Positions 12,901 to 55,488 of a DNA stretch of 55,488 nucleotides are shown here, in pieces; within the stretch, counting starts at the first letter, position 1, and every line of letters begins with the position of its first letter. This DNA comes from Candidatus Buchananbacteria bacterium (GTDB taxonomy: Bacteria > Patescibacteriota > Patescibacteriia > 2-01-FULL-39-33): NCBI GenBank assembly GCA_903863425.1, contig CAIPBY010000086.1, positions 1-55,488 of the forward strand. The letters run 5' to 3'. A program made the position numbers and the translations under genes. The notes below the pieces were generated by a model, which saw only the letters and a list, made by a program, of their open reading frames with translations, searched no databases and had not been told where the DNA came from.

Positions 12901-15141
12901 AGATCCATTATACAATTCCACCCATTGATCGGTTGAACCTTCTATGTTGCAAGTCAACCCGCTATTGCACCCCCGAGGATCGCAAACGCCCCAGACATCA
13001 TAACCGCAACTTTGATTACCACCGCCCCAAGTTGTCACCTTGAAGCCCCAGGCATAGAGAGTTTGAGTCGCCTGAGCCGTAAAAGGATTGGGAGCACAGC
13101 CAGGATCGCCTGACCTGGGAGCGCAAGCATTCCAATCATCTCCAGTGGCATTGCATTTTCTTTCATAACCGCAAGTACCGACTGGATCACAAACGGCCGT
13201 GGTACTAACTGTTCCCGGCTCGCAAGTTTTGTCAGTGCTTCCCTTCTGGCAAGTGCAAGAACTAGGATTACAGATCAATCCTAAAGTAGAACTGCAGACG
13301 CTATTTGCGACATCACAAGTTCTGCTATATCCTCCGCAGAAAGAACCATCTGATCCATCACTGAGGGTAAATCTAAATTTATTGCTATAATTCTCGCCAT
13401 CATAAATACGGATATCAGCCATATTGCCAGCCACGCTGGAATCAGGAATCACATCCGTTACGGTAGTGGAAGAAATCCAATTAGAGGCCGTACTGGTGAC
13501 AGTAGTACTCACCCAAGTCGCATCATCTGACATCTGGCCATTAACCCACTTGGCGTTTTTAAACGCGCCCAAATCCCAAATCACGCTGGAAGTGCTAGGG
13601 CTGGATCTTAAAAATTTATTGCCTATTATATTTGTAGACGAAGGAGCAACGCCATTTCGAGGCACAGCGTTGCAAATTCCCGGTCTTTGTATATTGTTAA
13701 TCTGGAAACCGACTTGGTTATCACTGTTTAGAGAATTATGACTAACCATGACCTTATAATTGGTGGAAGAATCTCTGACCACCTCGGAATCATTGGTATT
13801 ATTAGAAATATCAGAAACAACGTTAGGAACCTCAACAATAATTTGATTATCATCCCAAACCACAGGACAAGGCGAACCGGGAGGAAACGCCTGCGTACTG
13901 CTTTGAGCATTACCACTCTCCCAAAAATTCACACTGCCGAGAGCGGATGATGTGCCGAATCCCCTACCCAAAATAGTGATATAATTTCCGACAGCGCCAT
14001 TGGGAAGCTCAGTTGTGCCGACATTGGTAGTCGGAGAAATAGAGTCTATATGCGGAGGCCAAGCACAAGTACAAGTATTATTATCGCAAACCCCATTACT
14101 GCACTGAGCATTATCAGGTGAACAAGTGCCTCCACTCAAATTATTATTGCAGGACTCGCCTGGACAACTACCACATTCACCACCACAATCCTTGCCAGTT
14201 TCGCCAATATCTTGAATATTATTAAAACAATGCCTGGCACGAATAATGGTTTTAATAGGATTCGAATCTATCAGCGTTCCCAAGCCGCCAAGAGTGGCTT
14301 GAATTTTTAGGGTGGAAGTGGTGCCAGTAGCGAGTCCCGAAGTATCCCAAAGATAAGAAGCATTATTGATCTCCGGGACATTAGTTGGAGCATCTTGAAA
14401 TTGCCCCAATAAAGGCCAAGGATTAACGGGAGCGGTAGATGTTGTCCATAATAATTCCATTTTCGAAATAGTACCTCCTACATTCTTGGCATAACCACCG
14501 ACTTGCAAAGTGGAGGTGCTCTGAGGAACACCAATAGTACGATTATCATTCCAATTTACCCGAATACTCCACGGCCTGCTTAAATCACTGCCATTATCAC
14601 TAAATTTATTGATATAAGTGGACTGGTGACTGGCAGGAGAGCAGGTGTTTTCCCAATCACCCCAAACGCCATTTATACATCTTTGCACTCCGCAATTTCT
14701 TAAATTTTGCTGACCAGCAGTACATGGCTGACCGGGAATATTACCTCCCCCGCCTAATCCAAGCGCCTTCATGATAAATGAAGCGATGGCAAATGAAGCC
14801 ATAATTATAATCAAACCAATTACCCCGGCTATCAAAATTTTCTTAGCCTTGTCCACTTTTTGGGTATCGCCATTCGATATCATCCAAGTCCAACCGCCGT
14901 ACAAAATAATCAAAACTGCCAATACACCCAGAAGCCCTAGAAATATTCTCACAATATTACCTATGAGTGTAGGCAAAGGGGTATTACTGAGCCCAGCCGA
15001 GGCGCCGAAAGTGGCCAAATTACTGGTGGCAGTCTGGGCGAGAACAAAATTAACATTAAAAACAAAAACCAGAGCAACAATAAATATTGCCAGGATAACT
15101 AAGCTTGATTTATTTTTCTTATCCTTTCCTTTCCAAAACAT
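952..15141 (-). CDS. Giant (4729 aa) secreted or surface multidomain protein with an N-terminal VirB2/TrbC-pilin-like membrane anchor; putative adhesin
   Basis: A single uninterrupted 14190-nt ORF. The N-terminus has a signal/TM segment followed by ..[65 protein letters not shown] (two TM helices). Recognisable motifs: IPT/TIG-like ([19 protein letters not shown]), lamin-tail-like ([20 protein letters not shown]), LamG-like ([24 protein letters not shown]), and repeated [27 protein letters not shown]-type Cys-rich repeats (DUF4215/Myxococcus-type). Confidence 0.85.
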   Translation of the reverse strand: [4729 protein letters not shown]

Positions 15142-15167: not shown

Positions 15168-18100
15168 TTAATTGCTTGACATCGAAAGTGGCGTGCCAGT
15201 TACAACACAAGTGCCGAAACAGCATCCTGTTGATCCGCTGATATCTCCGGTAAGTGTGGATGTCGGATGGTCTTTGGTAATAATCCAGCTTCCGTATTTA
15301 TGGGTACTAGACACACTCGCATTATAATAAATCACAGCGCATCTATCTGTCGGCGAACAAATTTTCGCCCCCTCTACCTCCAGGCAATTCTCATGAGCAT
15401 AAGAAGCCGGATTGGTGGAGCTGACATTGTAAATTACGCTTGAACTGGCATCAGTCATACACCCTTGAGTTTCATTAGAGCCGTTTTTCTGGTAATTGCA
15501 ATTATTGCTGGAAGTCGCACCCATTGTAGAGGCGAAAGCTTCATCACCGGCATACCTCGGTCCGTTGCCGGGCAAGAAGCAATTCTGAGTGATGGATTGC
15601 ACGCCCGAACCGACCAAAGGCCCATATTGGACGGATTGATCGAAGTTATTATGGTTTATTACGGCCTGAGTTTGCTCGGCCCAGCCATTAGTCTCACCAC
15701 TTATATTGCTTGATCCAACCCAATACCCCACCGGATTCGCGCCGGGAGTAATGGTTTGCAAAGCCACGAATCTCTGCGCCCAAGAGGCTGTCGTTCTGTC
15801 GCCAGCTGGATCATAACCCCAGCCCGGCTTAAGCGTATCGGCGGCCATAATCCGATCAAAAGTGATTTTTACCTGATCCATAGGCGTCTGACCCTCGTCC
15901 GAGCCATATTTCTGGTCGCCGTAAGGCTCAATTTTGCTTATAAGCGGAGATTGCGAATCGATCAACGAAGAAACATAAAAGCTCCACTGGAAATTATCTC
16001 CAGTAGTGGCGACAGAAGTAGACCAAGGCCCTTTAGCCAGGCCGGCTAATTCCGGCCAAGAAGCTATGTTTGCAGATGACAAGATAGGCAACAAGAATGG
16101 ATTACTTCCAGGACCATCAGCAATACCTAGATTCTGTTTATAAAATTCATTATCATCATAATAATAATTATAATTGCCATTAAACGAGTTATTGGACATA
16201 TCGGCAATACCGCTGGTATAATCAGCTGTCTTGGGATAATAAACAGTCTGCCCGTTTACTAATTTACTGCACTTTGTATCCGCACTGCATCCGCCTCCGA
16301 AACTGCCGGCTACCTCCTTATCTCCATTTACACACCAAGAATCGCTAGTGCCAACACAAGTCTTGAGTGTAGCCGCCTTTATCTCTACTTCAAATTTAGT
16401 CGAGGTAGGAAACGCGCCGGGAGTAGAAGTGCTCCAGCAATAAATCGTATCTCCACAGCTATTTTTCCCGCAAGGTATAGTGCCTATCAAATCAACGGTT
16501 CTGTACTGGTTGGAAAAGGTAGTGGAAGCCGTGGTGGTCTCTATTGACGACACTATGCCATCACCATTTTTATCCATTCTCACAATTATATTATTTGTGA
16601 TAGAAAGAGGATTTATGGCCTTGCTGAAAGTAATTTGGAATTTGGTATTATTGGGCGAATCTTGTGGATCTGGTGTAGAATCATTTCTAATCACGCCGTA
16701 AACGGTATTTGTGCCTCCGGTCACGCTTTCAGTGGTACTTGCATTACCCGTCCAACGAACAATCCTGATGCTATTGCCTTGTTCTCCAACCTCTTTGGCT
16801 CGAATAATTACCGAGGTATTGGGAGTAGTCGTGGCCTCTGCATTTACAATCAAGCTATTAGAATTTATAGCAGTAGCCAAATACTGCGTGGATGATATGG
16901 CGCTAGTTCCCGCCTTAACTGTGATATAGGAAGGAATATCTCTCGGAATAGCTTCATTATCGCTCACAAACATGTATTTTTGTTCGATAGCGCCATTTTG
17001 GATGATATATCTATCTCCTATAACCGGACTATAAACCGTGAAACTCCATCGTGAACTTCTAGGGAAAGGAGCGCCGGTACCAGGAATATTGCTATTGCCA
17101 TCGGCCGTTGTTCGAGACTCTGCGATAAGCCCATTAAGATCCAAAGAATTGGAAGAAACACTCAATGGAAGACAACTAGATCTTACTATACTACCATCTT
17201 TACATACTCCATCAATTTTATAAGTTACACCCAAATAATCTTTCGCATTATTATTATTATTAAAAGTAACATAGGTGCCATCCGGGGATACGGTAAAATC
17301 TATAGTAGTGCTGGCTGGCGTATCTGAAGCCACCGCAAATCCAGAGGGGCTACGCACATAAGCTTTGAAACCACCCTCTACTGCTGTAGCAGGCGTCATC
17401 TCCGCAATCAAGGGATGGCTTTTATCCACATAAAAATGAAAGCTACCGCCTCTATCCCAAATTTTTACAGGAACATTGGGAATCACCGCAGAACCGAAAA
17501 GTGAGGTGACCACTCCCGTCGCTTTCACGGAAACGGTATTGTAATCGTCTGCGTGATCATCCGGCGGAGGAATAATTTCGGAAGCCACCACATAGGGCGG
17601 ATTCAAGTCCAGCTTGCCATTGGTTTCAAACGACCAAGAGTATTCTCCGCCTCCGAAGACAGACTCTGTTTTTCCTAATTTAGTAATTTCCGGACCAAGC
17701 CAAACTTGGAAATATCTGTCTTTGCCATCGGCCGGACCTAAATTGCTATTCGGCGTGAAGACATAAGTTCTATTGTCTGCAGTACTCGAGACTGTGGTAG
17801 AGGCGAAATGATCAACATTAAAGTCAGAGCCGGACATACACCCGCCAGTAGAAGACGCCTCGCAAATATGAATAGTGCTGGTACGAATATACCCATTATC
17901 TTTATAAATCGTACTGCTAGCCACCGGCTCTTTGAAAGTGACAATAATAAGCGTATCAATACTGACATCTTTCTGCTGTGGCGCCGGATAAACGCTCTCA
18001 ATCGGGCCTCGGCCGATATTTGATCGCCATGGATCGTCATGACAGCCCGGGCAAGATGGCGGTGGATTGGGATTATTTCCCTTTCCGCCAAGCCAACCCA

Positions 18101-18509
18101 TGATAAAGGTGGCAATAGCAAAAGAAAGCATCATAATGATTAATCCAATAATAGCATTGGTAATGATTTTCTTGGCCTTGTCCACCTTGGTCGGATCACC
18201 CTCAGCCGTCATCCAAATCCAACCGGCATAAATGATAATCAAAACCAGCACTACGCCGATCATGCCCAGGAAAATCCGAACTAAATTTCCGACAAAAGTG
18301 ACTAAATCGACATTAGGAAGTCCGGAAGCGGTGCCAAAAGCGGTAAGATTGCTATTAATATTGCTGTTTTGAGCCAAAACTGGAGAAGTCGCGCCAGCGC
18401 CGATAATAAAAGATAAAAGCAAAAAGACAGCCAGAAAAGAAACCCAAAAAGCTTTGGATTTTTTCTTGGCTGACGACCTTTGCATGGGTGAAAGCCGTTC
18501 CTTGAACAT
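15168..18509 (-). CDS. Large (1113 aa) surface protein with the same pilin-like N-terminal anchor and Ig-like (Big_5/SbsA-type) segments
   Basis: The ORF lies 26 nt upstream of the giant ORF on the same strand. Its N-terminus ..[65 protein letters not shown] is closely paralogous to the giant protein's N-terminus. Segments such as [26 protein letters not shown] look like bacterial Ig-like domains. Confidence 0.8.
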   Translation of the reverse strand: [1113 protein letters not shown]

Positions 18510-43473: not shown

Positions 43474-44034
43474 ATGCGAAGATCATTTCGAGGAAAGGGT
43501 TCTGTTGCCGTGGATTTAAGCAAGGAACTGCGTATAAACGAAAAAATATTTGCCAAAGAGCTCATGGTCATTGATGAGGCCGGACTTCCGTTGGGACTGC
43601 TGGATAGAGATCGGGCTCTTGAAGAAGCGAATACGAGGGGTTTCGATCTTGTCGAGGTGTCCCCCAAGGCCGTTCCCCCAATTGCCAAGTTCATGGATTT
43701 TGGAAGCTACAAATATCAGAAAGAAAAGCAAGAGAGAAAAAGCAAATCCAAAAACAAAACTGCAACGCTCAAAACAATCAAAATATCCACCCGCATCGGC
43801 CAGCACGATTTGGATATCCGATCATTGCAAGCAGTGAAATTCCTGGCTGATGGCGACAAGGTAAAAATAGAATTAATGCTTCGAGGACGCGAACATCAGC
43901 ATGTTGATTTAGCTCATGACTGCATCAAAAAAATGATTGCCGACATTGCTTCAAGAATTACGGATAAACAATTGAAAACCGAGCAAGATGTCAGCAGATT
44001 GGGAAGCAAGTTATCGGCCGTGATTTCATTGTAG
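43474..44034 (+). CDS. infC: Translation initiation factor IF-3
   Basis: RINEKIFAKELMVIDEAGLPLGLLDRDRALEEANTRGFDLVEVSPKAVPPIAKFMDFGSYKYQ plus the C-domain. The start codon is uncertain because infC often uses a non-ATG start. Confidence 0.85.
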   Translation: MRRSFRGKGSVAVDLSKELRINEKIFAKELMVIDEAGLPLGLLDRDRALEEANTRGFDLVEVSPKAVPPIAKFMDFGSYKYQKEKQERKSKSKNKTATLKTIKISTRIGQHDLDIRSLQAVKFLADGDKVKIELMLRGREHQHVDLAHDCIKKMIADIASRITDKQLKTEQDVSRLGSKLSAVISL

Positions 44035-44175
44035 GGGGATTACCCCATATTAGCTCCTCGGCTCGGAAATGCAAAAGATTACTTTTTCACTTCTCTCGCT
44101 CTACGTCGCTAATAATAAAAAATAATTAATATAATATAAAGGGCGAACAAAACCGCCTCTTGATAACTAAAATTT

Positions 44176-44373
44176 ATGCCAAAGATTAAAACCAGACAGG
44201 CTGTCGCCAAAAGATTCAAGGTAACCAAAAATGGAAAGGTTATCAAGAGAACTGCCGGCCAGGATCATTTCAACGCCAGGGAGTCAGGCAATACCAAAAG
44301 ACAGAAAAGACGCGATACTTCTATTGCCAAGGTGGATTGCAAAAATATTAAAATGATGATTCCGTACAATTAA
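44176..44373 (+). CDS. rpmI: 50S ribosomal protein L35
   Basis: MPKIKTRQAVAKRFKVTKNGKVIKRTAGQDHFNA. Confidence 0.9.
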   Translation: MPKIKTRQAVAKRFKVTKNGKVIKRTAGQDHFNARESGNTKRQKRRDTSIAKVDCKNIKMMIPYN

Positions 44374-44476
44374 GTTGAAAGTTCATAAAGTTATAAAGTT
44401 CATAAAGTTAGGATTTTATAAACGACGTGAACAAAAAACTTTTAACTTTATAACTTTACAAACTTTATAAACTAAT
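44374..44476. repeat. Second inverted array of the same TTATAAAG / CTTTATAA motifs, between rpmI and rplT
   Basis: GTTGAAAGTTCATAAAGTTATAAAGTTCATAAAGTT ... AACTTTATAACTTTACAAACTTTATAAAC. It shares GTTGAAAGTT(C)ATAAAG with the infC-upstream array. Confidence 0.7.
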
Positions 44477-44479
44477 ATT

Positions 44480-44824
44480 ATGCCAAGAGTAAAACGAGGA
44501 GTTCAACACGCCAAACGAAGAGCCAATGTTTTGAAAAAGACCAAGGGTTTTGAGGGCGGTAGAAAAAGCAAAATCAAATTAGCCAGAACCGCTGTCAATA
44601 AAGCCGGCGCTTATGCTTATCGCGATCGCAGAGTTAAGAAAAGAACTGCTAGAGCTTTGTGGCAAATACAGATCGGTGCCGCGACCAGAGAGTTGGGTGT
44701 TAGCTACAGCAAATTCATCGACGGACTCAAGAAAGCCAACATTGAATTGGATAGAAAAGTCCTAGCTGAAATGGCTGAGAATCAACCACAAATATTTGCC
44801 AAGATAGTTGAGAAAGTAAAATAA
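44480..44824 (+). CDS. rplT: 50S ribosomal protein L20
   Basis: MPRVKRGVQHAKRRANVLKKTKGFEGGRKSKIKLARTAVNKAGAYAYRDRR. Confidence 0.9.
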   Translation: MPRVKRGVQHAKRRANVLKKTKGFEGGRKSKIKLARTAVNKAGAYAYRDRRVKKRTARALWQIQIGAATRELGVSYSKFIDGLKKANIELDRKVLAEMAENQPQIFAKIVEKVK

Positions 44825-44888
44825 TTCTGTAGTGGTAGGCCTATGTGCCTACCCAAATGGGCAACCACAAGGGTTGCCCCTACAACCT

Positions 44889-44962
44889 GGATCGGTAGAT
44901 CAACTGGTTAGATCGCGTCCCTGTCACGGACGAGGTTGCGGGTTCGAGTCCCGTCCGGTCCG
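44889..44962 (+). tRNA. tRNA-Asp (GUC)
   Basis: GGATCGG-TA-GATC-AACTGGTTA-GATC-G-CGTCC-CTGTCAC-GGACG-AGGTT-GCGGG-TTCGAGT-CCCGT-CCGGTCC-G. No CCA is encoded. Confidence 0.85.
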
Positions 44963-46585
44963 CATAACGGAACAATTAGACGCTAAAGCGTCTTTTTTGT
45001 TTGTATTCATTGATGTTTCTGCGGTTATAGTGGACTGCTTATTGCTATTGTACTCAAAAATGAATCTATGTGGCGAAGTTTCATTATTTGCCAATACTTT
45101 CGCGGTTATTGTCGGGTTATAGTAGATGAACTGAAAAATATCTCTTCTTTGCTCTGGTGATCCATTTTTAAACTTGATATTTAGATTCTTCATAAAATCA
45201 ACATACCGAGTACAAAGGTCAAACCAGCGCTGACTCTGGCTCTCAGTGTCTTCCATTTTCTCTTTAATTATCTTAATTTCTTCTTGGGTCTCCTTTTTTT
45301 GATCTATAAATTCATTATCAGTTAATAGATTGCCGTCTTTATTGTCGGGAGATATTCTTAACCGCAATAAGTTGTCTAATCGTTGCTTACAGCGATTTAA
45401 CTCCGCTTGTTGTTGTTTAATAATGGCTTCCTGTTGCGAGAGTTCTTTTTCGTTTTCGGCAGTTATCTCTTCCATGGCCAACTTATAAAAATCTTCATCC
45501 ATAGTTAGCTCATCCATCTTCTTAGATATTTGCTCCTCCAACTCAGTCTCTCTGATGTAACTTAATCCTGTGCATTTACAACAACGATAGTACGGTAGGC
45601 CTTTTGAAGTAATACCAGAAATATTTCCACCACAAATACCGCATGCAATTAGGTTAGAATATGGATAAAAGCGTTTTTTGCCGACAGGTGTGCTTCTTAA
45701 TCCCAATACTTCTTGCACCCGCTCAAATAGCTCTTTACTAATTATTGGATCATGTCTCGTCTCTGTCGGTGATTCGTAGGGCTCTATAATTCTGCCCGTC
45801 CATCTTATTCCTCCATAATAAAATGGATTAGTCAAAATACGATATAGACTTGATTTAACCATTTTCTTTTCACTTCTACCGCCAGTTAAGCCCCATTTGA
45901 ATGCCTCGCCCCTTAATTTATCAAGCGTATAATGACCAGTGGAGCACTCCTCAAATAATTTCATTATTAACGGGTATAAAAAGGGATCTTTCTCAACTCT
46001 TTTTAATGGCCGTCCTAGATCGCCAAGCGCTACTTGTTTATCTAGCGAGTAAGTCTTGCCAGATATCTTGCCGTTAGGATCAATATTTAAATATCCCCTT
46101 GGAGCAAAATTTGGTATTTCACCTTTATTGAGTTTAGATTGGATATCTCTTTTAACAAACTCCGAAGTATCATCGGAGCTTTTTTTAGACATAGCAAATT
46201 GGAGGGCTAGAATAAACTCTTGTCCTGAATTCTTGGCGTATATTTCATGCGGAGTTCGCACTTCCTTGATGATGCCCTCTTTAAGCATATCCATTATTAG
46301 GCCTGCATCTCTCATATTTCTTGATAAGCGCGAAATATGGTATACCAAAACGGCATTAGCTTTGCCTTGCTCTATAAGCTCAATCAATTCGGCAAACTTG
46401 TCTCTGCCTTGCTTGTATGCTGATTGCGCCTCCTCTAGATCGGCGACAATTTTTAGATCGTGCTGATTGGCAAACTTAATTAGCTCTCTTTTTTGAGAAT
46501 CTAAACTTAAGGTCTGCTTATCCTCACCCTCAGAGGATTTGCGCCTGTAAATAATGTATTTTAATTGTTCTGGCTTATTTTCCAT
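44924..46585 (-). CDS. Large serine recombinase (integrase)
   Basis: MENKPEQLKYIIYRRKSSEGEDKQTLSLDSQ is the resolvase catalytic N-terminus with the Ser nucleophile region. LVYHISRLSRN and the zinc ribbon CGICGG..YYRCCKC precede a coiled-coil. The start is set at 46585; the track's upstream Met at 46630 lies in an inverted-repeat region. The last 13 codons plus the stop are encoded by the antisense of tRNA-Asp. Confidence 0.85.
   Translation of the reverse strand: MENKPEQLKYIIYRRKSSEGEDKQTLSLDSQKRELIKFANQHDLKIVADLEEAQSAYKQGRDKFAELIELIEQGKANAVLVYHISRLSRNMRDAGLIMDMLKEGIIKEVRTPHEIYAKNSGQEFILALQFAMSKKSSDDTSEFVKRDIQSKLNKGEIPNFAPRGYLNIDPNGKISGKTYSLDKQVALGDLGRPLKRVEKDPFLYPLIMKLFEECSTGHYTLDKLRGEAFKWGLTGGRSEKKMVKSSLYRILTNPFYYGGIRWTGRIIEPYESPTETRHDPIISKELFERVQEVLGLRSTPVGKKRFYPYSNLIACGICGGNISGITSKGLPYYRCCKCTGLSYIRETELEEQISKKMDELTMDEDFYKLAMEEITAENEKELSQQEAIIKQQQAELNRCKQRLDNLLRLRISPDNKDGNLLTDNEFIDQKKETQEEIKIIKEKMEDTESQSQRWFDLCTRYVDFMKNLNIKFKNGSPEQRRDIFQFIYYNPTITAKVLANNETSPHRFIFEYNSNKQSTITAETSMNTNKKDALASNCSVMRTGRDSNPQPRP
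44978..44998 (+). terminator. Intrinsic terminator after tRNA-Asp
   Basis: AGACGC-TAAA-GCGTCT followed by TTTTTT. Confidence 0.75.
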
Positions 46586-46732
46586 ATTTTTATAATTCAA
46601 AAAGGGACAACCGAACTGTTGCACACACATTATAAAACAGAGCGTTTTTTAATGAGTCAGTCAGTTGTCCCTTTTTGGGCAATAAAAAAACTCTATTTCT
46701 GAATGTGTGTGCAATTAAATGATACCATAAAT

Positions 46733-47507: not shown

Positions 47508-48317
47508 TCAGCATTTGCTTGTCTGGCAGTGGTGCTGATTTGGCGGTCGTCTAGACACCACTCTCAGGGCATATCCAGTAAAGTAAAATATATCTGGATA
47601 TCTAGCGGCTAGATAGTGTCCGTGCGGTGTTTTACATTCAAAGTACTTGTAAAAATCCTCATGTATTTCTTTACCTATCTGTTTATCTGGCATTATTTCA
47701 TCATTGTGAAATAGCCATTGTCCAAACTTTTCGTTGATTTTAAGGTGCTTATAGAATCTGATATTTTTTTCCTTCTTTGCTTTGGCAACCCTGAGATTAT
47801 CTCTAATAGTCGTCACACATAGATTTAGCGCCTCACTGGCTCGACTTTGGGATATTCTGCCATAGGTTATCCGTCTATATTTTGGCTTCTTCCGCAAGTC
47901 ATTTTCGAAATATATTTTAGTGATGTAGGCGGACAATTTTTTGTTGGATGAAAGATTTTTTAAAAAGATAGTATTGGCTCGCTCGGTTCTTATTATTGTT
48001 CGTCCATAGCGTAATCTATGCTTATTCATAATCCTTATCGCTGAAACTGGAAACATCTTTTGCTTACTGACATATCGGAATAGTCCAGATCTCATTAGCT
48101 TTCTCTTAAACAATTTGAATTGTTTGATTTTAACAACTTTCATTACTTGAGTAGTATCTGCCCAATTGCCCTGATTAGCACATAGCGTTCTTGTTGCCAG
48201 CCACGCTCTTAATCCTAACAATTGATCAAAATGATGCTTACAGAAGTGAAATAGAATGCGAATGGGAATATTAGCAAGTTTCGGCTCACCCCTGTTTTTA
48301 GGTTTTAGATCTTTCAT
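47508..48317 (-). CDS. Hypothetical basic protein with a probable HTH (possible replication or regulatory protein of the element)
   Basis: 269 aa and Arg/Lys-rich. ISQSRASEALNLCVTTIRDNL looks like an HTH. I recognise no family. Confidence 0.45.
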   Translation of the reverse strand: MKDLKPKNRGEPKLANIPIRILFHFCKHHFDQLLGLRAWLATRTLCANQGNWADTTQVMKVVKIKQFKLFKRKLMRSGLFRYVSKQKMFPVSAIRIMNKHRLRYGRTIIRTERANTIFLKNLSSNKKLSAYITKIYFENDLRKKPKYRRITYGRISQSRASEALNLCVTTIRDNLRVAKAKKEKNIRFYKHLKINEKFGQWLFHNDEIMPDKQIGKEIHEDFYKYFECKTPHGHYLAARYPDIFYFTGYALRVVSRRPPNQHHCQTSKC

Positions 48318-48570
48318 AGTATTGATTTAAAATTGATTCATTTATGGCTATTTGCAGTTCTGGGTCGTGAATTTTTATAAAGCTGAGGTACTTGCCATTT
48401 TTTTTAGTTGTTGGGTTCTTAACTACTGGATTTGGGTATGTTTGATTATGCAAAACCGTAAAGCCGATTATTTCTATGGCTTCGTTAATTACGACATTAG
48501 CTGTGGCTTTCAGGCTCGTGGTCGTTTGAGGTGTTAACCTAAATTTAGTTATTTTTATTTGGTGAATCAT
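48298..48570 (-). CDS. SpoVG-like small nucleic-acid-binding protein
   Basis: 90 aa. IKITKFRL..SLKATANVVINEAIEIIGFTVLHNQ...KKNGKYLSFIKIHDPELQIAINESILNQY parallels B. subtilis SpoVG ([29 protein letters not shown]...[27 protein letters not shown]), as recalled from memory. Confidence 0.45.
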   Translation of the reverse strand: MIHQIKITKFRLTPQTTTSLKATANVVINEAIEIIGFTVLHNQTYPNPVVKNPTTKKNGKYLSFIKIHDPELQIAINESILNQYYERSKT

Positions 48571-48661
48571 GTTGAGTGGCTGAAATAAAATGAAAAAACA
48601 AAAAAAGTATCATGTCTTAATGATACCTTTTTGAGCTTTTAAAATATAAGAAATAAGTGTA

Positions 48662-49441
48662 CTACAGTTTTTTCTTCCTTTCTCTAATTATGGTTTTGAT
48701 CCTACGTGTTTCAGCATACCCATAGTTGCTTTTTGAGATAAATGTTTCCTGAACTAGTTTTCCTAGCTTGGCGTCTTCCATGTCTATGTGTGCCTCAATA
48801 AAATCTAGAATTTCTTTTTTTGGTTTAATCCTAATTCTTCCAATTTTACAATTTCGATCTTGGAGTAATTTTAACCTTGGCCTAATTTGTGTTTTATAAT
48901 TTTTTTCTACATAATCGACAATATCCCTTCTAGAGGCGTAAGGGCTGATTCTGATTGAAATAGGGAAATACTCATATGCTGCTTCATCATCTTCCTTTCT
49001 ACATCCCATAGCGCAAATAGTATTTACTGGCTCTCTTGTTGGTTTTCTTGTGGTATTGAATAGTATATATACCAGCATGGGTACAGCCCAATAAGTATAG
49101 TACAATTTATATTCTTTACATATATTTTCTGCTTCATTTTTAAGCGATAATATTAGTGAATGATCGCTTAATGGGAAATCAATCTCTAGACCCTCTTTTG
49201 GTATAGACGAGTAATGAGATATTTTAATCATCTCGGCATAGTTTTCTAAATTTTCTGGCGTATATCCATTGAGGGGTATATTGTATTTTCCCCTAATCCC
49301 AGCTATCTGCTTACTAACTTCATCTAATTTGATTATAGCCAAAAAATAATTCCAAAGTTTCTCAAATCCTTGGCTTTTTCTGGGTCTTATTTTCTTTCGT
49401 TTTAGATCTGGTAGTTTCATTTTTTTAGTCGGTTGGCACAT
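48662..49441 (-). CDS. Hypothetical protein (259 aa)
   Basis: ORF only. An alternative start gives MKLPDLKRKK (49420). It is followed by the hairpin GTATCAT..ATGATAC (48607-48626), which is flanked by A and T runs. Confidence 0.5.
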   Translation of the reverse strand: MCQPTKKMKLPDLKRKKIRPRKSQGFEKLWNYFLAIIKLDEVSKQIAGIRGKYNIPLNGYTPENLENYAEMIKISHYSSIPKEGLEIDFPLSDHSLILSLKNEAENICKEYKLYYTYWAVPMLVYILFNTTRKPTREPVNTICAMGCRKEDDEAAYEYFPISIRISPYASRRDIVDYVEKNYKTQIRPRLKLLQDRNCKIGRIRIKPKKEILDFIEAHIDMEDAKLGKLVQETFISKSNYGYAETRRIKTIIRERKKKL

Positions 49442-49698
49442 GTGGATTTAACTAGTTTTTCCCATCCCACGGCCTTTTTGAAGATTCTAATATGGGTTTC
49501 AGACAAAATTTAACCCCCCTATCTTTTTGGGACAGCACACATAAATAAATTAGTGTTCGCTGGGGTTATTTTTTATCTAAGAATAAACAAAATAATACCA
49601 CTTTATCCTATCAATTTATCTACCACTAAAATATATTATCAAGAATATAATTATATTATACATAAAAATCTGGTATTTAGCCTCTTTTTTAGTATTTA

Positions 49699-49727
49699 TT
49701 GAATTTATTGTCTAGTTTTGATATAGT
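49699..49727 (+). promoter_or_regulatory. Sigma70-like promoter
   Basis: TTGAAT (49699-49704), a 17-nt spacer, then TATAGT (49722-49727). It sits in a long AT-rich divergent intergenic region. Confidence 0.5.
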
Positions 49728-49758
49728 AGGAATACAATAATGACCTAAATTACTAGAT

Positions 49759-49885
49759 TCTAGTGACATGGTCGCAAGTCCAGTTAGACATGAAGAACCC
49801 ATCATGTGTTTTTTGTCTAACTGGCCGTTTCGGGAAACCGAAATGAGTGGCGCAAGTCACTAGACTCACGTGGTGGGCTTTTTGA
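49759..49885 (+). ncRNA. Structured 5' leader or small RNA with mutually exclusive helices and GNRA tetraloops
   Basis: TCTAGTGAC (49759-67) pairs with GTCACTAGA (49856-64). CCAGTTAGACA (49780-90) pairs with TGTCTAACTGG (49813-23). TTTCGG-GAAA-CCGAAA is a hairpin. GTGGC-GCAA-GTCAC competes with the first helix. CCCATCATGTG (49798-808) pairs with CACGTGGTGGG (49868-78), followed by CTTTTT. Confidence 0.45.
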
Positions 49886-49904
49886 TTGTTTAAATTAAAA
49901 AAAT

Positions 49905-50132
49905 ATGAAGTTTATATTTTATTTTTTAGTGAGCTATCTCTTGTATGGTGCTTTTTTGATTGGGCGCGATTTTACTACTAACTGGAGGAATGCTCCTGAA
50001 TATGTGCGAGATCCCAATCCAGTCATGATAATTTATGCCTTAATCCGTAAGCCATTATTGATCAATGGTGTCGCCATGTGCTTGGTAATAGTGGGTGTGA
50101 TTGGGCTTATTCTGTTTTTTATATTCGGTTAA
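49905..50132 (+). CDS. Small two-TM membrane protein (75 aa)
   Basis: MKFIFYFLVSYLLYGAFLIG... and LLINGVAMCLVIVGVIGLILFFIFG. Confidence 0.5.
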   Translation: MKFIFYFLVSYLLYGAFLIGRDFTTNWRNAPEYVRDPNPVMIIYALIRKPLLINGVAMCLVIVGVIGLILFFIFG

Positions 50133-50136
50133 TCAT

Positions 50137-51588
50137 ATGGATAAACCAATGAAAACTCGCCTAACCCCGCCAGAGTGGTTCGTTTTGTTTCTCCGCGACA
50201 AGAAGTACCCGAACGAAGACAAGGGCTCATTAAATAGAGCAGAGTTCCTGGCCTTGAATAACTGGAAACCGAGGAAAGATGAGGAAAAGGAATTCAATCA
50301 ACTCATGAGCCAATGGCAGAATATCTTGTTTGCGGAGATAGGCGCTAAGATGGCATTTTACGGCCTTGAGTGGCAGTGTTTTAAGGCCAGAGACTGGTTG
50401 ATGTATTTCAGCTATAAGGATCAAGAATTTGGTCTATTAAAGAATTATGTGGAGAATCACATAAACTCGTCAACATTTGACCCGCTGGATATTCTACTTA
50501 GAAATAGCTGGATTGAATTTGACCACCTGACATATCTGCTGACTTTTGAATTGATGGATTTGGGACTGCGCAAGGATTTATGGATTTGTGATCGCAATGT
50601 CATGTTAGTAGAGAACTATTTGAGGGATCAAGAAACTGTCGCCGACATATTGATTGTCAATGGCGGCCTCACTGAAGTGGCCAAAGAAAAGATAGCCGAG
50701 GCCATAGTCAACAAAATGCACTGCGGCGCTTATCCCGATTATCGATTTTTTCTGTATTGGTATGACTTCATTATGTTCCCAACCATAGAAATAGGCAGAA
50801 GATTTGTTAAGCGCCATAATGTTTATTGTTTGCCGACAGAGCAGGAGAAGAAAGAGCATAAATGCGCCAGCTCTAAAATACTGGAAGAATTCACCTTAAA
50901 AAGAGCAATAGTTGATCATGTCCAGAAATACAACATTAACTTAAAAGAGCAATTCCAAGATATTGCCAAGGAATTATTGGATGAGGGATTGTTGGAAACT
51001 CTCCCGCTTTTCTGGGGCAATAGCAATCAGATTAAGGGCGATAAAGGAGAACACACCAATTATAGCGGCCAGAAGCTATATGATGAGTGGAAACGTTATA
51101 AAGGCTTGGCCGAAGCTGAATTACAATATTTGGTCAGTGGCGGATCGCTGGAAGTAGGTTATCTGGACAAACGCAAATATTGTTCCTTTGCTAAGGAGGA
51201 AAATAAAGTTGTCTCGGCTAAGAGCTTGTATGAGCTAAAGAGCGATTATGGGCTGGTCAGGGATTTTAAACAACAGATGTCTGATCTGCAATTTCTCGGC
51301 CCTATGATAAGTCTGTGGGACAAGAAGAGTTATGGAAGCAATCGCTTGATTCTTTCGCAGTCGACGGAGACCATCAAAAAGTCAGCCGAGATTCTCGGAG
51401 CCGATTTTAGCGATAAGATCGAAGAAATTAAGGGCTACATTGATGAACTAGATAAGCTCGCAAAAAAAGTTGATGATCAGGCCGATAGCTTGGTTGACTG
51501 CTATGTGGCCAACGGTTGGAATAATACAGCAACAAGAAAATTTTCTATCAGAATTAAATTGTCTTCACTAAAAGATCTACAATTATGA
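50137..51588 (+). CDS. Hypothetical 483-aa protein, no recognisable family
   Basis: The start was moved to MDKPMKTRL (ATG 50137), 4 nt after the upstream stop. It overlaps the SppA start by 4 nt (ATGA). Confidence 0.6.
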   Translation: MDKPMKTRLTPPEWFVLFLRDKKYPNEDKGSLNRAEFLALNNWKPRKDEEKEFNQLMSQWQNILFAEIGAKMAFYGLEWQCFKARDWLMYFSYKDQEFGLLKNYVENHINSSTFDPLDILLRNSWIEFDHLTYLLTFELMDLGLRKDLWICDRNVMLVENYLRDQETVADILIVNGGLTEVAKEKIAEAIVNKMHCGAYPDYRFFLYWYDFIMFPTIEIGRRFVKRHNVYCLPTEQEKKEHKCASSKILEEFTLKRAIVDHVQKYNINLKEQFQDIAKELLDEGLLETLPLFWGNSNQIKGDKGEHTNYSGQKLYDEWKRYKGLAEAELQYLVSGGSLEVGYLDKRKYCSFAKEENKVVSAKSLYELKSDYGLVRDFKQQMSDLQFLGPMISLWDKKSYGSNRLILSQSTETIKKSAEILGADFSDKIEEIKGYIDELDKLAKKVDDQADSLVDCYVANGWNNTATRKFSIRIKLSSLKDLQL

Positions 51589-52412: not shown

Positions 52413-52540
52413 AACAATAATTGAAACAGCGAGAGCGGACATAGAATCCGCTCTCGCTTTGGCTTTGACTTTTACGCTCAAATATGGCATTATAAAAGCA
52501 ATTTAACTCCCAATAAAATATAATATCAACGAAATAATAT

Positions 52541-53992
52541 ATGTTTGAACAATCATTCAAAAACATCGATAACATCCTCCACACCGACTCTGGCTGTGGC
52601 ACTGAGCTTGATTATGTTGAGCAGACATCCTGGATCCTATTTTTGAAGTATCTGGACGACTTGGAAGAGACCAAAAGGATCGAAGCGGCGTTGGCGGGGA
52701 AGGTCTATGATCATATATTGATGCCAGAATATACCTGGGACAGCTGGGCTTGTCCCAAAGGTAGCGACGGCAAGCTGGATCACAACAAAGCGTTGGATGG
52801 CGATGATTTGAAGGATTTTGTTGATCACAAACTTTTTCCTTATCTTAAGAAGTTTAAAGCGGAGGAACCGAACACTATTGAATATAAAATCGGTGAGATT
52901 TTTTCTGAGCTCAAAAATAAGATCTCTAGCGGTTATAAACTCCGTGAGATTTTAAACATCGTTGACGGCATGCACTTTCGACTGTATGAGGAGAAGCACG
53001 AACTATCACATCTCTACGAGGCCAAAATCAAGAACATGGGTAACGCTGGACGAAACGGCGGAGAGTATTACACACCTCGTCCACTCATTAAAACTATAGT
53101 CAAAGTAGTAGCGCCCAAGATTGGCGACACTATATATGACGGAGCTTGTGGCAGCGCAGGATTTTTGGTTGAGGCTTACAATTATCTCACTCAAAATCAA
53201 TCAGAACTTTCCTCAAGTCAAATGGATACTCTTCAAAATAATACTTTTTATGGCAAGGAGATAAAATCGTTGGCCTACATTATTGGCATTATGAATATGA
53301 TTCTTCATGGTGTTGAAGCGCCGAATATTAGGCACATGAATACCTTGTCGCAAAATATAAATGAAATTCAAGAGAAAGATCGTTACTCAATAATTTTAGC
53401 AAATCCGCCATTTGGCGCTGGTATCGGCCGAGAGATTCAACAGAATTTTCCAATCAAGACTGGTGAGACTGCTTTTCTCTTTCTCCAGCACTTTATCAAA
53501 ATTCTTAAGGCAGGCGGTAAAGCAGGTATCGTCATCAAGAATACTTTCTTATCTAACACCGATAATGCCAGCGTGTCATTGCGCAAACTGCTCTTGGAAA
53601 ATTGTAATCTACATACCGTATTGGACTTGCCAGGTGGCGCATTCCAGGGCGCTGGTGTGAAGACTGTGGTTTTATTTTTTGAGAAGGGCGCGCCGACAGA
53701 GAAGATTTGGTTTTATCAATTAAACCTTGATCGCAATCTTGGCAAAGGCCAGCCACTAAGCGAAGCTGACTTGGCCGAGTTTGTGGAATTACAGAAGACA
53801 AAGACCAATGGCGATAATTCATGGAGTATTGATATTAAAAATATTGACCAGTCAACTTTTGATTTGTCAGTAAAGAATCCTAGTAAGGGTGATGAAGTTG
53901 CTTTGCGTGAGCCGAAGGATATAGTCGAAGAGATAAAAAGATTAAATGAAGAAGCTGAGCAAACTTTGAAGGAAATCAGTAAAATTCTATAA
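52541..53992 (+). CDS. hsdM: Type I restriction-modification system methyltransferase subunit
   Basis: The HsdM N-domain (DYVEQTSWILFLKYLDD), GEYYTPRPL, motif I DGACGSAGFLV and motif IV ILANPPFG. Confidence 0.9.
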   Translation: MFEQSFKNIDNILHTDSGCGTELDYVEQTSWILFLKYLDDLEETKRIEAALAGKVYDHILMPEYTWDSWACPKGSDGKLDHNKALDGDDLKDFVDHKLFPYLKKFKAEEPNTIEYKIGEIFSELKNKISSGYKLREILNIVDGMHFRLYEEKHELSHLYEAKIKNMGNAGRNGGEYYTPRPLIKTIVKVVAPKIGDTIYDGACGSAGFLVEAYNYLTQNQSELSSSQMDTLQNNTFYGKEIKSLAYIIGIMNMILHGVEAPNIRHMNTLSQNINEIQEKDRYSIILANPPFGAGIGREIQQNFPIKTGETAFLFLQHFIKILKAGGKAGIVIKNTFLSNTDNASVSLRKLLLENCNLHTVLDLPGGAFQGAGVKTVVLFFEKGAPTEKIWFYQLNLDRNLGKGQPLSEADLAEFVELQKTKTNGDNSWSIDIKNIDQSTFDLSVKNPSKGDEVALREPKDIVEEIKRLNEEAEQTLKEISKIL

Positions 53993-53996
53993 TGTT

Positions 53997-55460
53997 ATGA
54001 AATTAAAATCCATTAAGATTCTAAATTATAGAAGTGTCGAAGAAGTAATTATTGAGATAGACTCGTTAGATGATCGAAGTTTTACTTATGGACTAATTGG
54101 TATAAATGAAGCAGGAAAAAGTAGTATCCTGAAATCATTGGCTCTTTTAGATGAACACACAGGAATAAAACCCGAAGCGCATGATTTTTATGACAAGACA
54201 AAGCCCATTGAAATAATTTATCTTTATAATCAATCCAAAGAGGAAATAGCAGAAAATAAAAGTATTCTATTAGAAAAATTACCAGAGCTTAAGACTAAAA
54301 TAGAAAATCGTGAGCTTGAAGAGGTTGAGTTAAAGGGTGGCTTTTTAATTACTGATTTACAAAATAAAAAAAGTATTATTTTTTCAAAACTTTCTAGTGA
54401 TCAAAAAGAATTGATCGAAAATACTTTGGCTGATACTGTTTATGCAAATTCGCATTATACTATTTATTGGAAATCTGAGGACAAATATCTTATTTCTAGT
54501 CAGATTAGTTTAGCGAGTTTCTCTGAAGATCCTAGTAATGTTTCTATCCCGTTAAAAAATTGTTTTACTCTTATTGGTCTAGATACAAAAGAAAAGATCA
54601 AAGAAAAAATCATTCAGATTTCCAATGATTCGACAGAGCGAGAATTGCTTCGTGAAGACCTTGGTAAAAAAGTTACTAACTTAATAAAAAAGGTATGGCC
54701 AAACCATCCAGTTGTTATTACTTTTGATATTTCGGGGGATTCTATTAACTTTCACATTAAAGATCCAAATGGTAAACCTCGAACTACCAATCAAAGAAGC
54801 GATGGCTTTAAGCAGTTTGTCTCTTTTCTTCTTAATATTTCTTCTCAAAAAGAGAATAATGAACTATCAGATAGTTTAATTTTATTAGATGAGCCAGAGA
54901 CACACCTACATCCTCAAGCTCAAGAGTATTTTTTAGCAGAATTGATAAAATTAACTCAATCGGAAAATAATATCTGTTTTTTTGCTACCCATTCAAATTA
55001 TATGGTAGATAAAAATATTTTATCTAGAAACTTTAGGGTGGTTAAAGTTGAAAAAGACGGCAAAACCATGATCGAAAGGTTGAATAAAAAAATATCAACC
55101 TATGCCAGTGTTAATTATGAAGTATTTAATATTTCTAGCACTGATTACTTTAATGAATTGTATAGTTGTTTGCACCAAAAATATATTGACGAAGCAATAA
55201 ACGAAGGAGAAGAAAAAGAAAGAAGTTTTATAAAAAATTTTGATAAAGACTATCTACTTCCTAAATCTAAGAAAAAAAATAAGTGGAAACACCTTAATAA
55301 AAAAGGAGAAGAAATTGAAGAAAATATTTCTATTTATTCATATCTGAGACACTTAATTCACCATCCAGAAAGAAGAGAGGCAAATAAATTATTTTCTTTA
55401 GATAAAGATTTGTCTGTGTGTATAGAAGAGATGATTAAAATTAAAGAAGATGAAAAATAA
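53997..55460 (+). CDS. ABC-type (AAA_15/AAA_21, OLD/RecF-like) ATPase inserted in the type I R-M operon; the C-terminal domain may be HEPN-like (PrrC/RloC-style)
   Basis: Walker A GINEAGKSSILKSL, a signature-like RSDGFKQ, Walker B plus D-loop LILLDEPETHLHPQAQ, and an H-loop FFATHS. The C-terminal roughly 130 aa contains YSYLRHLIHHPER (an Rx4H pattern). The ORF starts 5 nt after the hsdM stop and overlaps the hsdS start. Confidence 0.65.
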   Translation: MKLKSIKILNYRSVEEVIIEIDSLDDRSFTYGLIGINEAGKSSILKSLALLDEHTGIKPEAHDFYDKTKPIEIIYLYNQSKEEIAENKSILLEKLPELKTKIENRELEEVELKGGFLITDLQNKKSIIFSKLSSDQKELIENTLADTVYANSHYTIYWKSEDKYLISSQISLASFSEDPSNVSIPLKNCFTLIGLDTKEKIKEKIIQISNDSTERELLREDLGKKVTNLIKKVWPNHPVVITFDISGDSINFHIKDPNGKPRTTNQRSDGFKQFVSFLLNISSQKENNELSDSLILLDEPETHLHPQAQEYFLAELIKLTQSENNICFFATHSNYMVDKNILSRNFRVVKVEKDGKTMIERLNKKISTYASVNYEVFNISSTDYFNELYSCLHQKYIDEAINEGEEKERSFIKNFDKDYLLPKSKKKNKWKHLNKKGEEIEENISIYSYLRHLIHHPERREANKLFSLDKDLSVCIEEMIKIKEDEK

Positions 55461-55488
55461 TTGGCAAACAAAAAAACTTGGTGAAGTC
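55450..55488 (+). CDS. hsdS: Type I R-M specificity subunit, with only the first 13 codons in the window
   Basis: ATG AAA AAT AAT TGG CAA ACA AAA AAA CTT GGT GAA GTC translates to MKNNWQTKKLGEV, the classic HsdS N-terminus (W..xKLGEV). It overlaps the ATPase stop by 11 nt. Confidence 0.6.
   Translation, partial: MKNNWQTKKLGEV

Follow-up and report, generated by a model that had tools for sequence, protein, structure and literature searches.

What does an ABC-type ATPase do between the methyltransferase and specificity genes of a type I restriction-modification (R-M) operon? The question is raised by a stretch of 55,488 nt from Candidatus Buchananbacteria bacterium (assembly GCA_903863425.1, contig CAIPBY010000086.1, positions 1 to 55,488), referred to here as the window, at whose end a gene for a 487-aa protein separates hsdM from hsdS. 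We put the probability at roughly one half that this protein is a PrrC-like defence module embedded in the R-M system, i.e., an ABC-type sensor fused to a nuclease effector. The evidence that carries this reading is the order of the genes, an intact ATPase, a C-terminal domain that appears dedicated to ATPases of this type, a nearly invariant arginine and histidine within that domain, and embedding in R-M operons with no other partner gene.

The operon is a type I R-M system. The first of the three genes, hsdM (52541-53992, + strand), encodes the 483-aa N6-adenine methyltransferase subunit, as established by the open reading frame (ORF) call, by a PADLOC match to MTase_I over the whole protein length (3.8e-155), and by Pfam matches to N6_Mtase (2.8e-61) and HsdM_N. 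Its TAA stop codon ends at 53992 and is followed by a 4-nt spacer (tgtt) and the ATG of the ATPase gene (53997-55460, + strand; 487 aa). The ATG of a third ORF, at 55450, opens the peptide MKNNWQTKKLGEV and overlaps the ATPase ORF by 11 nt (55450-55460); this ORF runs off the window, with only 13 codons (55450-55488, + strand) inside it. Proteins identical to the 487-aa ATPase are present on further metagenome contigs. One of these, a longer contig in ENA (34 kb; gene list only), has at the equivalent position a 386-aa ORF with a Methylase_S domain, and the truncated ORF is identified as hsdS for this reason. On the same contig, hsdS is followed by a gene for a 795-aa HsdR with HSDR_N_2, ResIII, and EcoEI_R_C domains. 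The full operon is therefore hsdM-ATPase-hsdS-hsdR, with hsdR lying just past the window end, and HsdM, HsdS, and HsdR all belong to one locus (HsdS and HsdR by way of the longer contig). These data bear out an earlier interpretation made from the letters alone (the sequence-only reading), which had placed an ABC ATPase between hsdM and hsdS, had given the same end of hsdM and the same 11-nt overlap, and had found no hsdR in the window. The ORF list and the raw sequence also confirm the tight spacing on which that reading based its claim that the three genes are co-translated; co-translation itself is suggested by the spacing.

The ATPase is intact. An ABC head with inserts occupies residues 1-361 (53997-55079, + strand), of which residues 1-337 match Pfam AAA_15 (81.8 bits, 1e-22, cut-off 32.1) and AAA_21 (61.9 bits, 1.4e-16, cut-off 27). 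In an alignment of 76 sequences, there is no variation at the key residues of any motif (K41-S42, Q266-D269, D298-E299, and T331-S333). The motifs, all encoded on the + strand, are a Walker A motif, G35-I-N-E-A-G-K-S42 (54099-54122), in which N37, E38, K41, and S42 are invariant; an ABC signature-like sequence, Q266-R-S-D-G270 (54792-54806), with Q266, R267, S268, and D269 invariant; a Walker B motif, L294-I-L-L-D-E299 (54876-54893), followed by an invariant P-E-T-H-L-H-P; and an H-loop, T331-H-S333 (54987-54995), with T331, H332, S333, and N334 invariant. An AlphaFold2 model of the full-length protein, built from the 76-sequence alignment, has a predicted local distance difference test score (pLDDT) of 93.3 and a predicted template modelling score (pTM) of 0.89. 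In a Foldseek search, this model matches the heads of SMC, Rad50, PtuA, and GajA (E about 1e-14), with the similarity confined to the ATPase heads. Motifs and fold thus both place the protein among the OLD-like ABC ATPases (AAA_15/AAA_21), as the sequence-only reading had concluded from the motifs.

The head does not assign the protein to a named defence system. The nearest named PADLOC models are Old, AriA, GajA, and PtuA, and the nearest PDB sequences are the Thermus OLD nuclease (6p74), the OLD protein of retron Eco8, and PtuA; all of these matches are through the ATPase head only. OLD nuclease, Gabija, Septu, and PARIS were rejected as identities, since only the generic ABC head matches and the scores are far below curated cut-offs. 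The retron Eco8 effector (47.7 bits vs a cut-off of 250) and the restriction system-associated AAA ATPase TIGR04435 (31.4 bits vs a cut-off of 300) were rejected too. MADS was also rejected: with the NCBIfam models, MAD3 scores 21.7 bits vs 420 and MAD2 scores 83.6 bits vs 720, and hsdS and hsdR at this locus are of the classical kind. No PADLOC v2.0.0 model spans the full protein or covers its C-terminal domain. Past the ATPase part, Pfam, PADLOC, and NCBIfam give no match to Toprim, and the protein is therefore not an OLD nuclease of classes 1-3. It shares with class 1 OLD proteins and PARIS the type of ABC head, and with class 1 OLD proteins the combination of ATPase and effector in one gene, but it differs from both in having neither a Toprim domain nor a Toprim partner; in their place is a 125-aa putative effector domain that falls into no described class.

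This C-terminal domain (residues 362-487, 125 aa; 55080-55457, + strand) has no match in any library searched. Modelled in isolation (pLDDT 82.7, pTM 0.76), it is predicted to consist of a helix (369-375), a long helix (382-402), a third helix (412-423), a beta-hairpin (427-445), a helix (446-455), and a final long helix (462-486). Helix 446-455 leads into the core motif, R451-H-L-I-H455-H456 (55347-55364, + strand), followed by P457; this candidate catalytic Rx4H lies within the sequence LRHLIHHPER (residues 450-459), which the sequence-only reading had singled out as a pattern like the HEPN RNase motif. The window protein has one Rx4-6H match, and 1.1 are expected from its composition. Since a single occurrence is at chance level, the evidence for the motif lies in its conservation across the family, which goes far past what chance would give. 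Among 150 representatives at 50% identity, the family consensus is I-R-N-x-I-H-H-P-E-N: R451 is conserved in 99%, position 452 is N in 75% or H in 23%, and I454, H455, and H456 are conserved in 91%, 77%, and 95%, respectively; further along, P457 is found in 87%, position 458 is E in 64% or D in 17%, and N459 is found in 72%. The pair of R451 and H456 is thus the most conserved feature of the domain, and the arginine-histidine pair of the sequence-only reading holds up across homologues. Sequences with Y at 456 have H at 455, and those with N, D, or A at 455 have H at 456; the histidines at +4 and +5 therefore co-vary such that at least one is always kept. A second conserved patch lies on the long helix (H385 93%, E387 79%, L388 95%, Y389 94%), and L472 (95%) and S475 (97%) are conserved as well. 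The conserved polar cluster looks like an active site or ligand site rather than a variable protein-protein interface.

Could the domain be a HEPN ribonuclease, as the sequence-only reading proposed? HEPN domains are described as carrying their motif where the penultimate helix ends, with an insert between the two helices before it (PMC3710099). The predicted order here, i.e., a long helix, a helix, a hairpin insert, a helix ending in R..HH, and a last helix, fits that description (PMC3710099). The domain also has an Rx4-6H motif in which the arginine is followed by a polar residue (N or H at position 452 in 98%). By contrast, searches of libraries gave nothing. The window domain has no match in Pfam, PADLOC, PHROGs, or NCBIfam, and a Pfam search with 37 domain sequences gave no match, to a HEPN family or to any other; the search of the C-terminus for HEPN, PrrC, Abi, or Toprim, which the sequence-only reading had suggested as a check, returned no Pfam family, and the parallel check with PADLOC returned only the generic ABC head. 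No match was found in the PDB with a sequence profile, and a Foldseek search with the isolated domain gave best E values of 1.1 (PDB) and 0.5 (BFVD), with HEPN absent even among the weak matches. Motif and predicted topology fit HEPN, but no profile or fold match is significant, and the HEPN fold raised by the sequence-only reading is not established. Our best guess, from motif and predicted topology, is that the domain is HEPN-like.

A different effector chemistry would follow if the hairpin and the helix after it (residues 427-455) formed a beta-beta-alpha, His-Me finger-like site or another DNase site, in which case the protein would target DNA in the manner of a class 1 OLD nuclease. The beta-hairpin does lead straight into the helix that carries N452, H455, and H456, the ATPase head is closest to the OLD family nucleases, and NCBI has named one member an "ATP-dependent nuclease". 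However, conservation within the domain is lowest in the strands of the hairpin, no conserved His or Asp is present at the end of strand 1, where a His-Me finger requires one, and neither Pfam nor Foldseek yields a match to HNH, His-Me, or Toprim. The His-Me/HNH interpretation of the hairpin and helix was rejected because the hairpin has no conserved catalytic residue, and we regard a DNA-targeting effector of any kind as very unlikely.

The domain is widespread, and it keeps the same company wherever this was checked. A profile search against 1.84 billion representatives matched 907 clusters (50% identity) at E <= 1e-3, and 331 at E <= 1e-10. Among all matches listed, the domain is at the C-terminal end of the protein. 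All 10 matches scanned for domains, which include all listed matches longer than about 550 aa, are AAA_15/AAA_21 ATPases with differing inserts. As far as these matches show, the domain is an appendage dedicated to OLD-type ABC ATPases. Family members come from Patescibacteria, Proteobacteria, Bacteroidota, relatives of Leptospira, and Chlorobi; phage and plasmid collections contain no full-length relatives.

The genomic neighbourhood indicates which genes, if any, the family works with. In a scan of one genome per species that gave 34 non-redundant, full-length loci, R-M genes adjoin the ATPase in 14 (41%), and the ATPase is solitary in the remaining 20. An all-against-all comparison of flanking ORFs found HsdM (13 loci), HsdS (11), and HsdR (9) as the only recurring neighbours, with every other gene present in three loci or fewer. 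Because only hsd genes recur, there is no separate effector gene, and a second gene as effector was rejected. The four closest proteins looked up (P0001, P0003, P0007, and P0018; 54-100% identity) are all encoded directly after hsdM and before hsdS in type I operons. The gene orders of these close relatives are M-A-S-R or R-M-A-S, where A is the ATPase gene, and their HsdR proteins are of the EcoEI_R_C and T1RH-like_C types. Three relatives with 47% identity are solitary: one in Methylotenera lies beside a ribonucleotide reductase gene, one in Patescibacteria beside an HTH/HEPN gene pair, and one in an island with serine recombinases. The genes beside one solitary member (L003 9513-10703, - strand) encode a membrane-anchored protein with a C-terminal HEPN-type sequence, IRNKAVH (a weak Pfam HEPN match), and an HTH_3 protein; they may be an unrelated toxin-antitoxin-like pair.

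A simple account of this distribution is hitch-hiking: the protein would be the same single-gene ATPase-effector defence, functionally independent of R-M, and the slot in the operon would give it expression and co-transfer (a "genomic sink", or selfish linkage). The 20 solitary loci, which have no recurrent neighbour, favour this account, as does a neighbour-joining tree with clades of 20 and 16 members, in which 13 of the 20 are R-M-embedded with solitary members interspersed among them, and only 2 of the 16 are embedded. Unrelated embedded candidates occur in the same operons, including PDC-S18, PDC-S13, SoFic, HNH, and Schlafen genes. In one locus, Bro-N (PDC-S13), SoFic, and a PtuB-like HNH protein are encoded between hsdM and the ATPase gene (L013 2803-5987). 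In another, a Schlafen gene (AlbA_2-HATPase_c_4) separates hsdM from the ATPase gene (L042 4742-8121), and an insertion of about 220 aa brings the ATPase to 706 aa. In the closest related operon, the gene after hsdR (L006 11906-12847) is a full-length PADLOC PDC-S18 match (4.7e-94), and on the longer contig with the identical ATPase, hsdR is followed by genes for an unknown 292-aa protein and a PDDEXK_1 protein. Operons of this group thus hold two or more candidate defence genes, whether embedded or appended. Moreover, embedded TgvAB and BrxU work independently of their host systems. The GC content adds a further point: the ATPase gene has a GC of 0.288 and a third-position GC (GC3) of 0.21, vs 0.41 and 0.44 for hsdM. 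The same sharp fall at the junction of hsdM and the ATPase gene is seen in 9 of 10 other loci (L006-L040), most extremely in L019 (GC3 0.33 vs 0.72), and hsdS is low as well, which suggests that the segment of ATPase gene and hsdS has been exchanged more often than hsdM and hsdR.

Set against hitch-hiking is the regularity of the slot. In more than 10 loci, the junction from hsdM to the ATPase gene is between -4 and +10 nt, and that from the ATPase gene to hsdS is between -11 and +2 nt; these tightly joined loci come from Patescibacteria, Alphaproteobacteria, Nitrosomonas, Bacteroidota, and a Leptonemataceae genome. The ATPases occur with at least three HsdM lineages. Within the subclade of the window protein alone, the adjacent HsdM proteins are 67%, 37%, and 25% identical to the window HsdM, and since such divergent HsdM proteins adjoin an ATPase in the same slot, the ATPase gene has moved between type I lineages while its position was kept. 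Random insertion would not be expected to give so regular a pattern, in which the M-A-S slot and its overlapping stop and start codons are retained exactly with at least three HsdM lineages and in several phyla, and a 41% linkage to R-M is very high for a gene without any other recurrent neighbour. There are exceptions to the usual order, namely M-S-A (L023), R-A (L028), and a type IIG-like methyltransferase gene followed by the ATPase gene (L045), and a distant member (P0207, L092 2130-5760) adjoins a type II C5-methyltransferase/HpaII pair, Vsr, and RhuM-Fic. On balance, we regard hitch-hiking as possible but rather unlikely.

The same spacing lends itself to another explanation, in which the C-terminal domain is an adaptor or ligand-binding domain and the ATPase modulates the type I enzyme, e.g., through its assembly, restriction alleviation, or DNA loading and turnover; solitary copies would then modulate an unlinked partner. 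The junctions suggest translational coupling with hsdM and hsdS, which could lead to stoichiometric assembly, and the domain has no detectable nuclease fold. In addition, the defence ABC ATPases AriA, PtuA, and MAD3, to which the window protein has weak matches, are sensors or scaffolds for separate effectors. However, solitary members have no conserved partner gene, type I R-M enzymes are generally known to function without such a subunit, and the conserved R, N, H, H, E, and N are typical of catalysis and are unchanged whichever HsdM lineage adjoins. We consider an accessory subunit of this kind quite improbable.

PrrC, the anticodon nuclease associated with the EcoprrI type IC R-M system of E. 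coli, is among the closest known systems. As in PrrC, one gene within a type I hsd operon encodes both an N-terminal ABC-type NTPase and the C-terminal domain fused to it. The small C-terminal nuclease domain of PrrC has an essential Arg and His, and the domain described here has its conserved R and H. The proposed logic is also the same, i.e., a latent suicide RNase that is freed when restriction is inhibited (PMC3710099; PMC12707154). There are several differences. First, the ATPase is of the AAA_15/AAA_21 OLD type and has no match to PF13166 (AAA_13) at E <= 1, and none of the 120 homologues listed matches PF13166. Second, the ATPase gene lies between hsdM and hsdS, whereas prrC lies between hsdS and hsdR. 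Third, the C-terminal domain has no detectable relation among Pfam families. Fourth, the associated R-M enzymes go beyond type IC, with several HsdM and HsdR lineages represented. Fifth, most members of the family have no R-M linkage. Membership of the PrrC/RloC family was rejected because there is no AAA_13 match, and PrrC is retained as an analogy. This agrees with the sequence-only reading, which had likened the arrangement to PrrC and RloC and had noted that sequence and position differ from those of the prr locus.

Nucleases of the PrrC/RloC kind cut the anticodon loop of tRNA and stay latent until the R-M enzyme is inhibited or DNA damage occurs. RloC is much longer and has a coiled coil with a zinc hook; members of the present family are 460-490 aa. 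RloC and the ABC-HEPN fusions of the APECO1_4465 and ERFG_01251 families (Anantharaman et al. 2013) share with the present family an ABC ATPase followed by a C-terminal Rx4-6H domain. These proteins occur on their own, on mobile islands, or beside R-M genes together with Fic/DOC or RhuM genes, and related loci here include a Fic gene (L013) and a RhuM-Fic gene (L092). A catalogue of ABC ATPase-HEPN fusions from 2013 (PMC3710099) includes those near R-M genes, where Fic/DOC or RhuM genes are often present as well. The comparison with the APECO1_4465 and ERFG_01251 families is by description only, and the present family may be identical with one of them. More broadly, functional defence genes have been found nested in R-M and Hma systems, and nesting inside R-M, BREX, DISARM, and Hma operons is an established theme (10.1101/2024.01.29.577857; PMC11411939), with ABC ATPases the commonest embedded family in Payne et al. 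2024 (10.1101/2024.01.29.577857). The HEC and PDC candidates of that study and TgvAB in a type I R-M system of V. cholerae are likewise nested in multi-gene defence operons, and neighbours in related loci match PDC-S18, PDC-S13, and SoFic. The present family itself appears to be absent from the catalogued embedded candidates, as judged by the lack of coverage by PADLOC v2.0.0 models.

How might such a protein work? If it is a PrrC-like module, its insertion in a type I R-M operon would have it expressed together with the operon. As is typical of the family, the OLD-type ABC head would bind and hydrolyse ATP and dimerise, and it would hold the C-terminal domain latent pending a signal. The C-terminal domain would be the effector, most likely a metal-independent, HEPN-like endoribonuclease with its site at R451, N or H452, and H456, and its release would halt translation, with growth arrest or abortive infection as the outcome. 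For the R-M-embedded lineage, the tight coupling of hsdM, ATPase gene, and hsdS could ensure co-production with the methyltransferase core, and the ATPase might contact HsdM or HsdS. The trigger would most plausibly be failure or inhibition of the R-M enzyme, e.g., by an anti-restriction protein, as for PrrC-EcoprrI or PARIS (AriA/AriB), which senses anti-restriction proteins and kills through tRNA cleavage. Stand-alone relatives would sense another signal, as RloC does.

Several points weigh against the PrrC-like module. There is no statistical link between the domain and a HEPN or other nuclease fold in Pfam, PDB profile, or Foldseek (PDB and BFVD) searches, and hhalign gives a probability of 0.3% against the HEPN-annotated neighbour in L003 (9513-10424), a comparison with one single sequence, for which a word-indexed homologue search gave none. 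The window protein and its nearest clade have F in place of H385 and C in place of S475 (nt 55149-55151 and 55419-55421; DYFNQLY or DYFNELY around position 385); R451 and H456 are retained, but these proteins may differ in activity from the rest of the family. Roughly 60% of members are solitary, such that dependence on R-M is not a property of the family and a guard role cannot explain everything. Lastly, the AT-rich composition of the ATPase gene would fit hitch-hiking as well as functional integration.

A bolder variant combines two departures from the PrrC-like module: the domain would have a new effector fold, with no relation to HEPN, and the ATPase would be a physical fourth subunit of some type I R-M enzymes. 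Loaded onto HsdM2S1 through the coupling of the three genes, it would sense stalling, inhibition by a DNA mimic, or loss of HsdS, and would turn R-M failure into cell arrest. We find this combination doubtful. If true, it would mean that a built-in guard has moved among at least three type I lineages with its slot unchanged.

The surroundings of the operon in the window add context. A strong hairpin (52428-52458, both strands; 12-13 bp stem with 8 G-C pairs) lies between an upstream S49 peptidase gene and hsdM and is a terminator-like boundary that would mark the start of the R-M transcription unit. Shortly after it is a candidate operon promoter (52465-52493, + strand), a consensus match with TTGACT and CATTAT separated by 17 nt and a TG before the -10 element; promoter-like sites are not enriched in the window (15 found vs 10.4 +/- 3.9 in shuffles), which makes the promoter evidence weak. 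Further upstream, infC-rpmI-rplT is followed directly by a gene for a large serine recombinase (568 aa; 44924-46630, - strand) with Resolvase, Recombinase, and Zn_ribbon_recom domains, the whole region spanning 43474-46630. The DNA downstream of the recombinase, which comprises ORFs without Pfam matches, the S49 peptidase gene, and the R-M operon, looks like an integrated island. The ORFs without Pfam matches lie at 47508-51588 and encode proteins of 269, 259, and 90 aa (- strand) and 495 aa (+ strand), and a hydrophobic 75-aa ORF (49905-50132) extends into the beginning of the 495-aa ORF. Serine recombinases are also present beside relatives in L005, L010, L020, and L029. At the other end of the window, on the - strand, are a giant ORF of 4729 aa (952-15141) with an N-terminal T4SS_pilin domain and LTD, Laminin_G_3, and DUF4215 domains, and a neighbouring ORF of 1113 aa (15168-18509) with T4SS_pilin at its start followed by Big_5. 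Both belong to the huge pilin-like surface proteins typical of Patescibacteria (Candidate Phyla Radiation), in agreement with the taxonomy of the closest ATPase homologues.

The principle described here is not new, since fusions of ABC ATPases to nucleases and defence genes embedded in R-M systems are both established. What appears to be new is the family and its domain, for which there is no model in Pfam, PADLOC, NCBIfam, or PHROGs, although the family may have been described before under another name. Annotation pipelines now label such proteins only as "AAA family ATPase", and a model of the domain would add a family to annotation. With embedded and solitary copies of one protein both present in nature, the family offers a clean test of whether embedding amounts to functional coupling. 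To our knowledge, hardly any "guard" nuclease other than PrrC has been worked out that is tied to a type I restriction enzyme. If the PrrC-like reading is true, the family would be a second such case, with another ATPase subfamily, another effector domain, and another operon position, and it would be far more widespread and phylogenetically broad.

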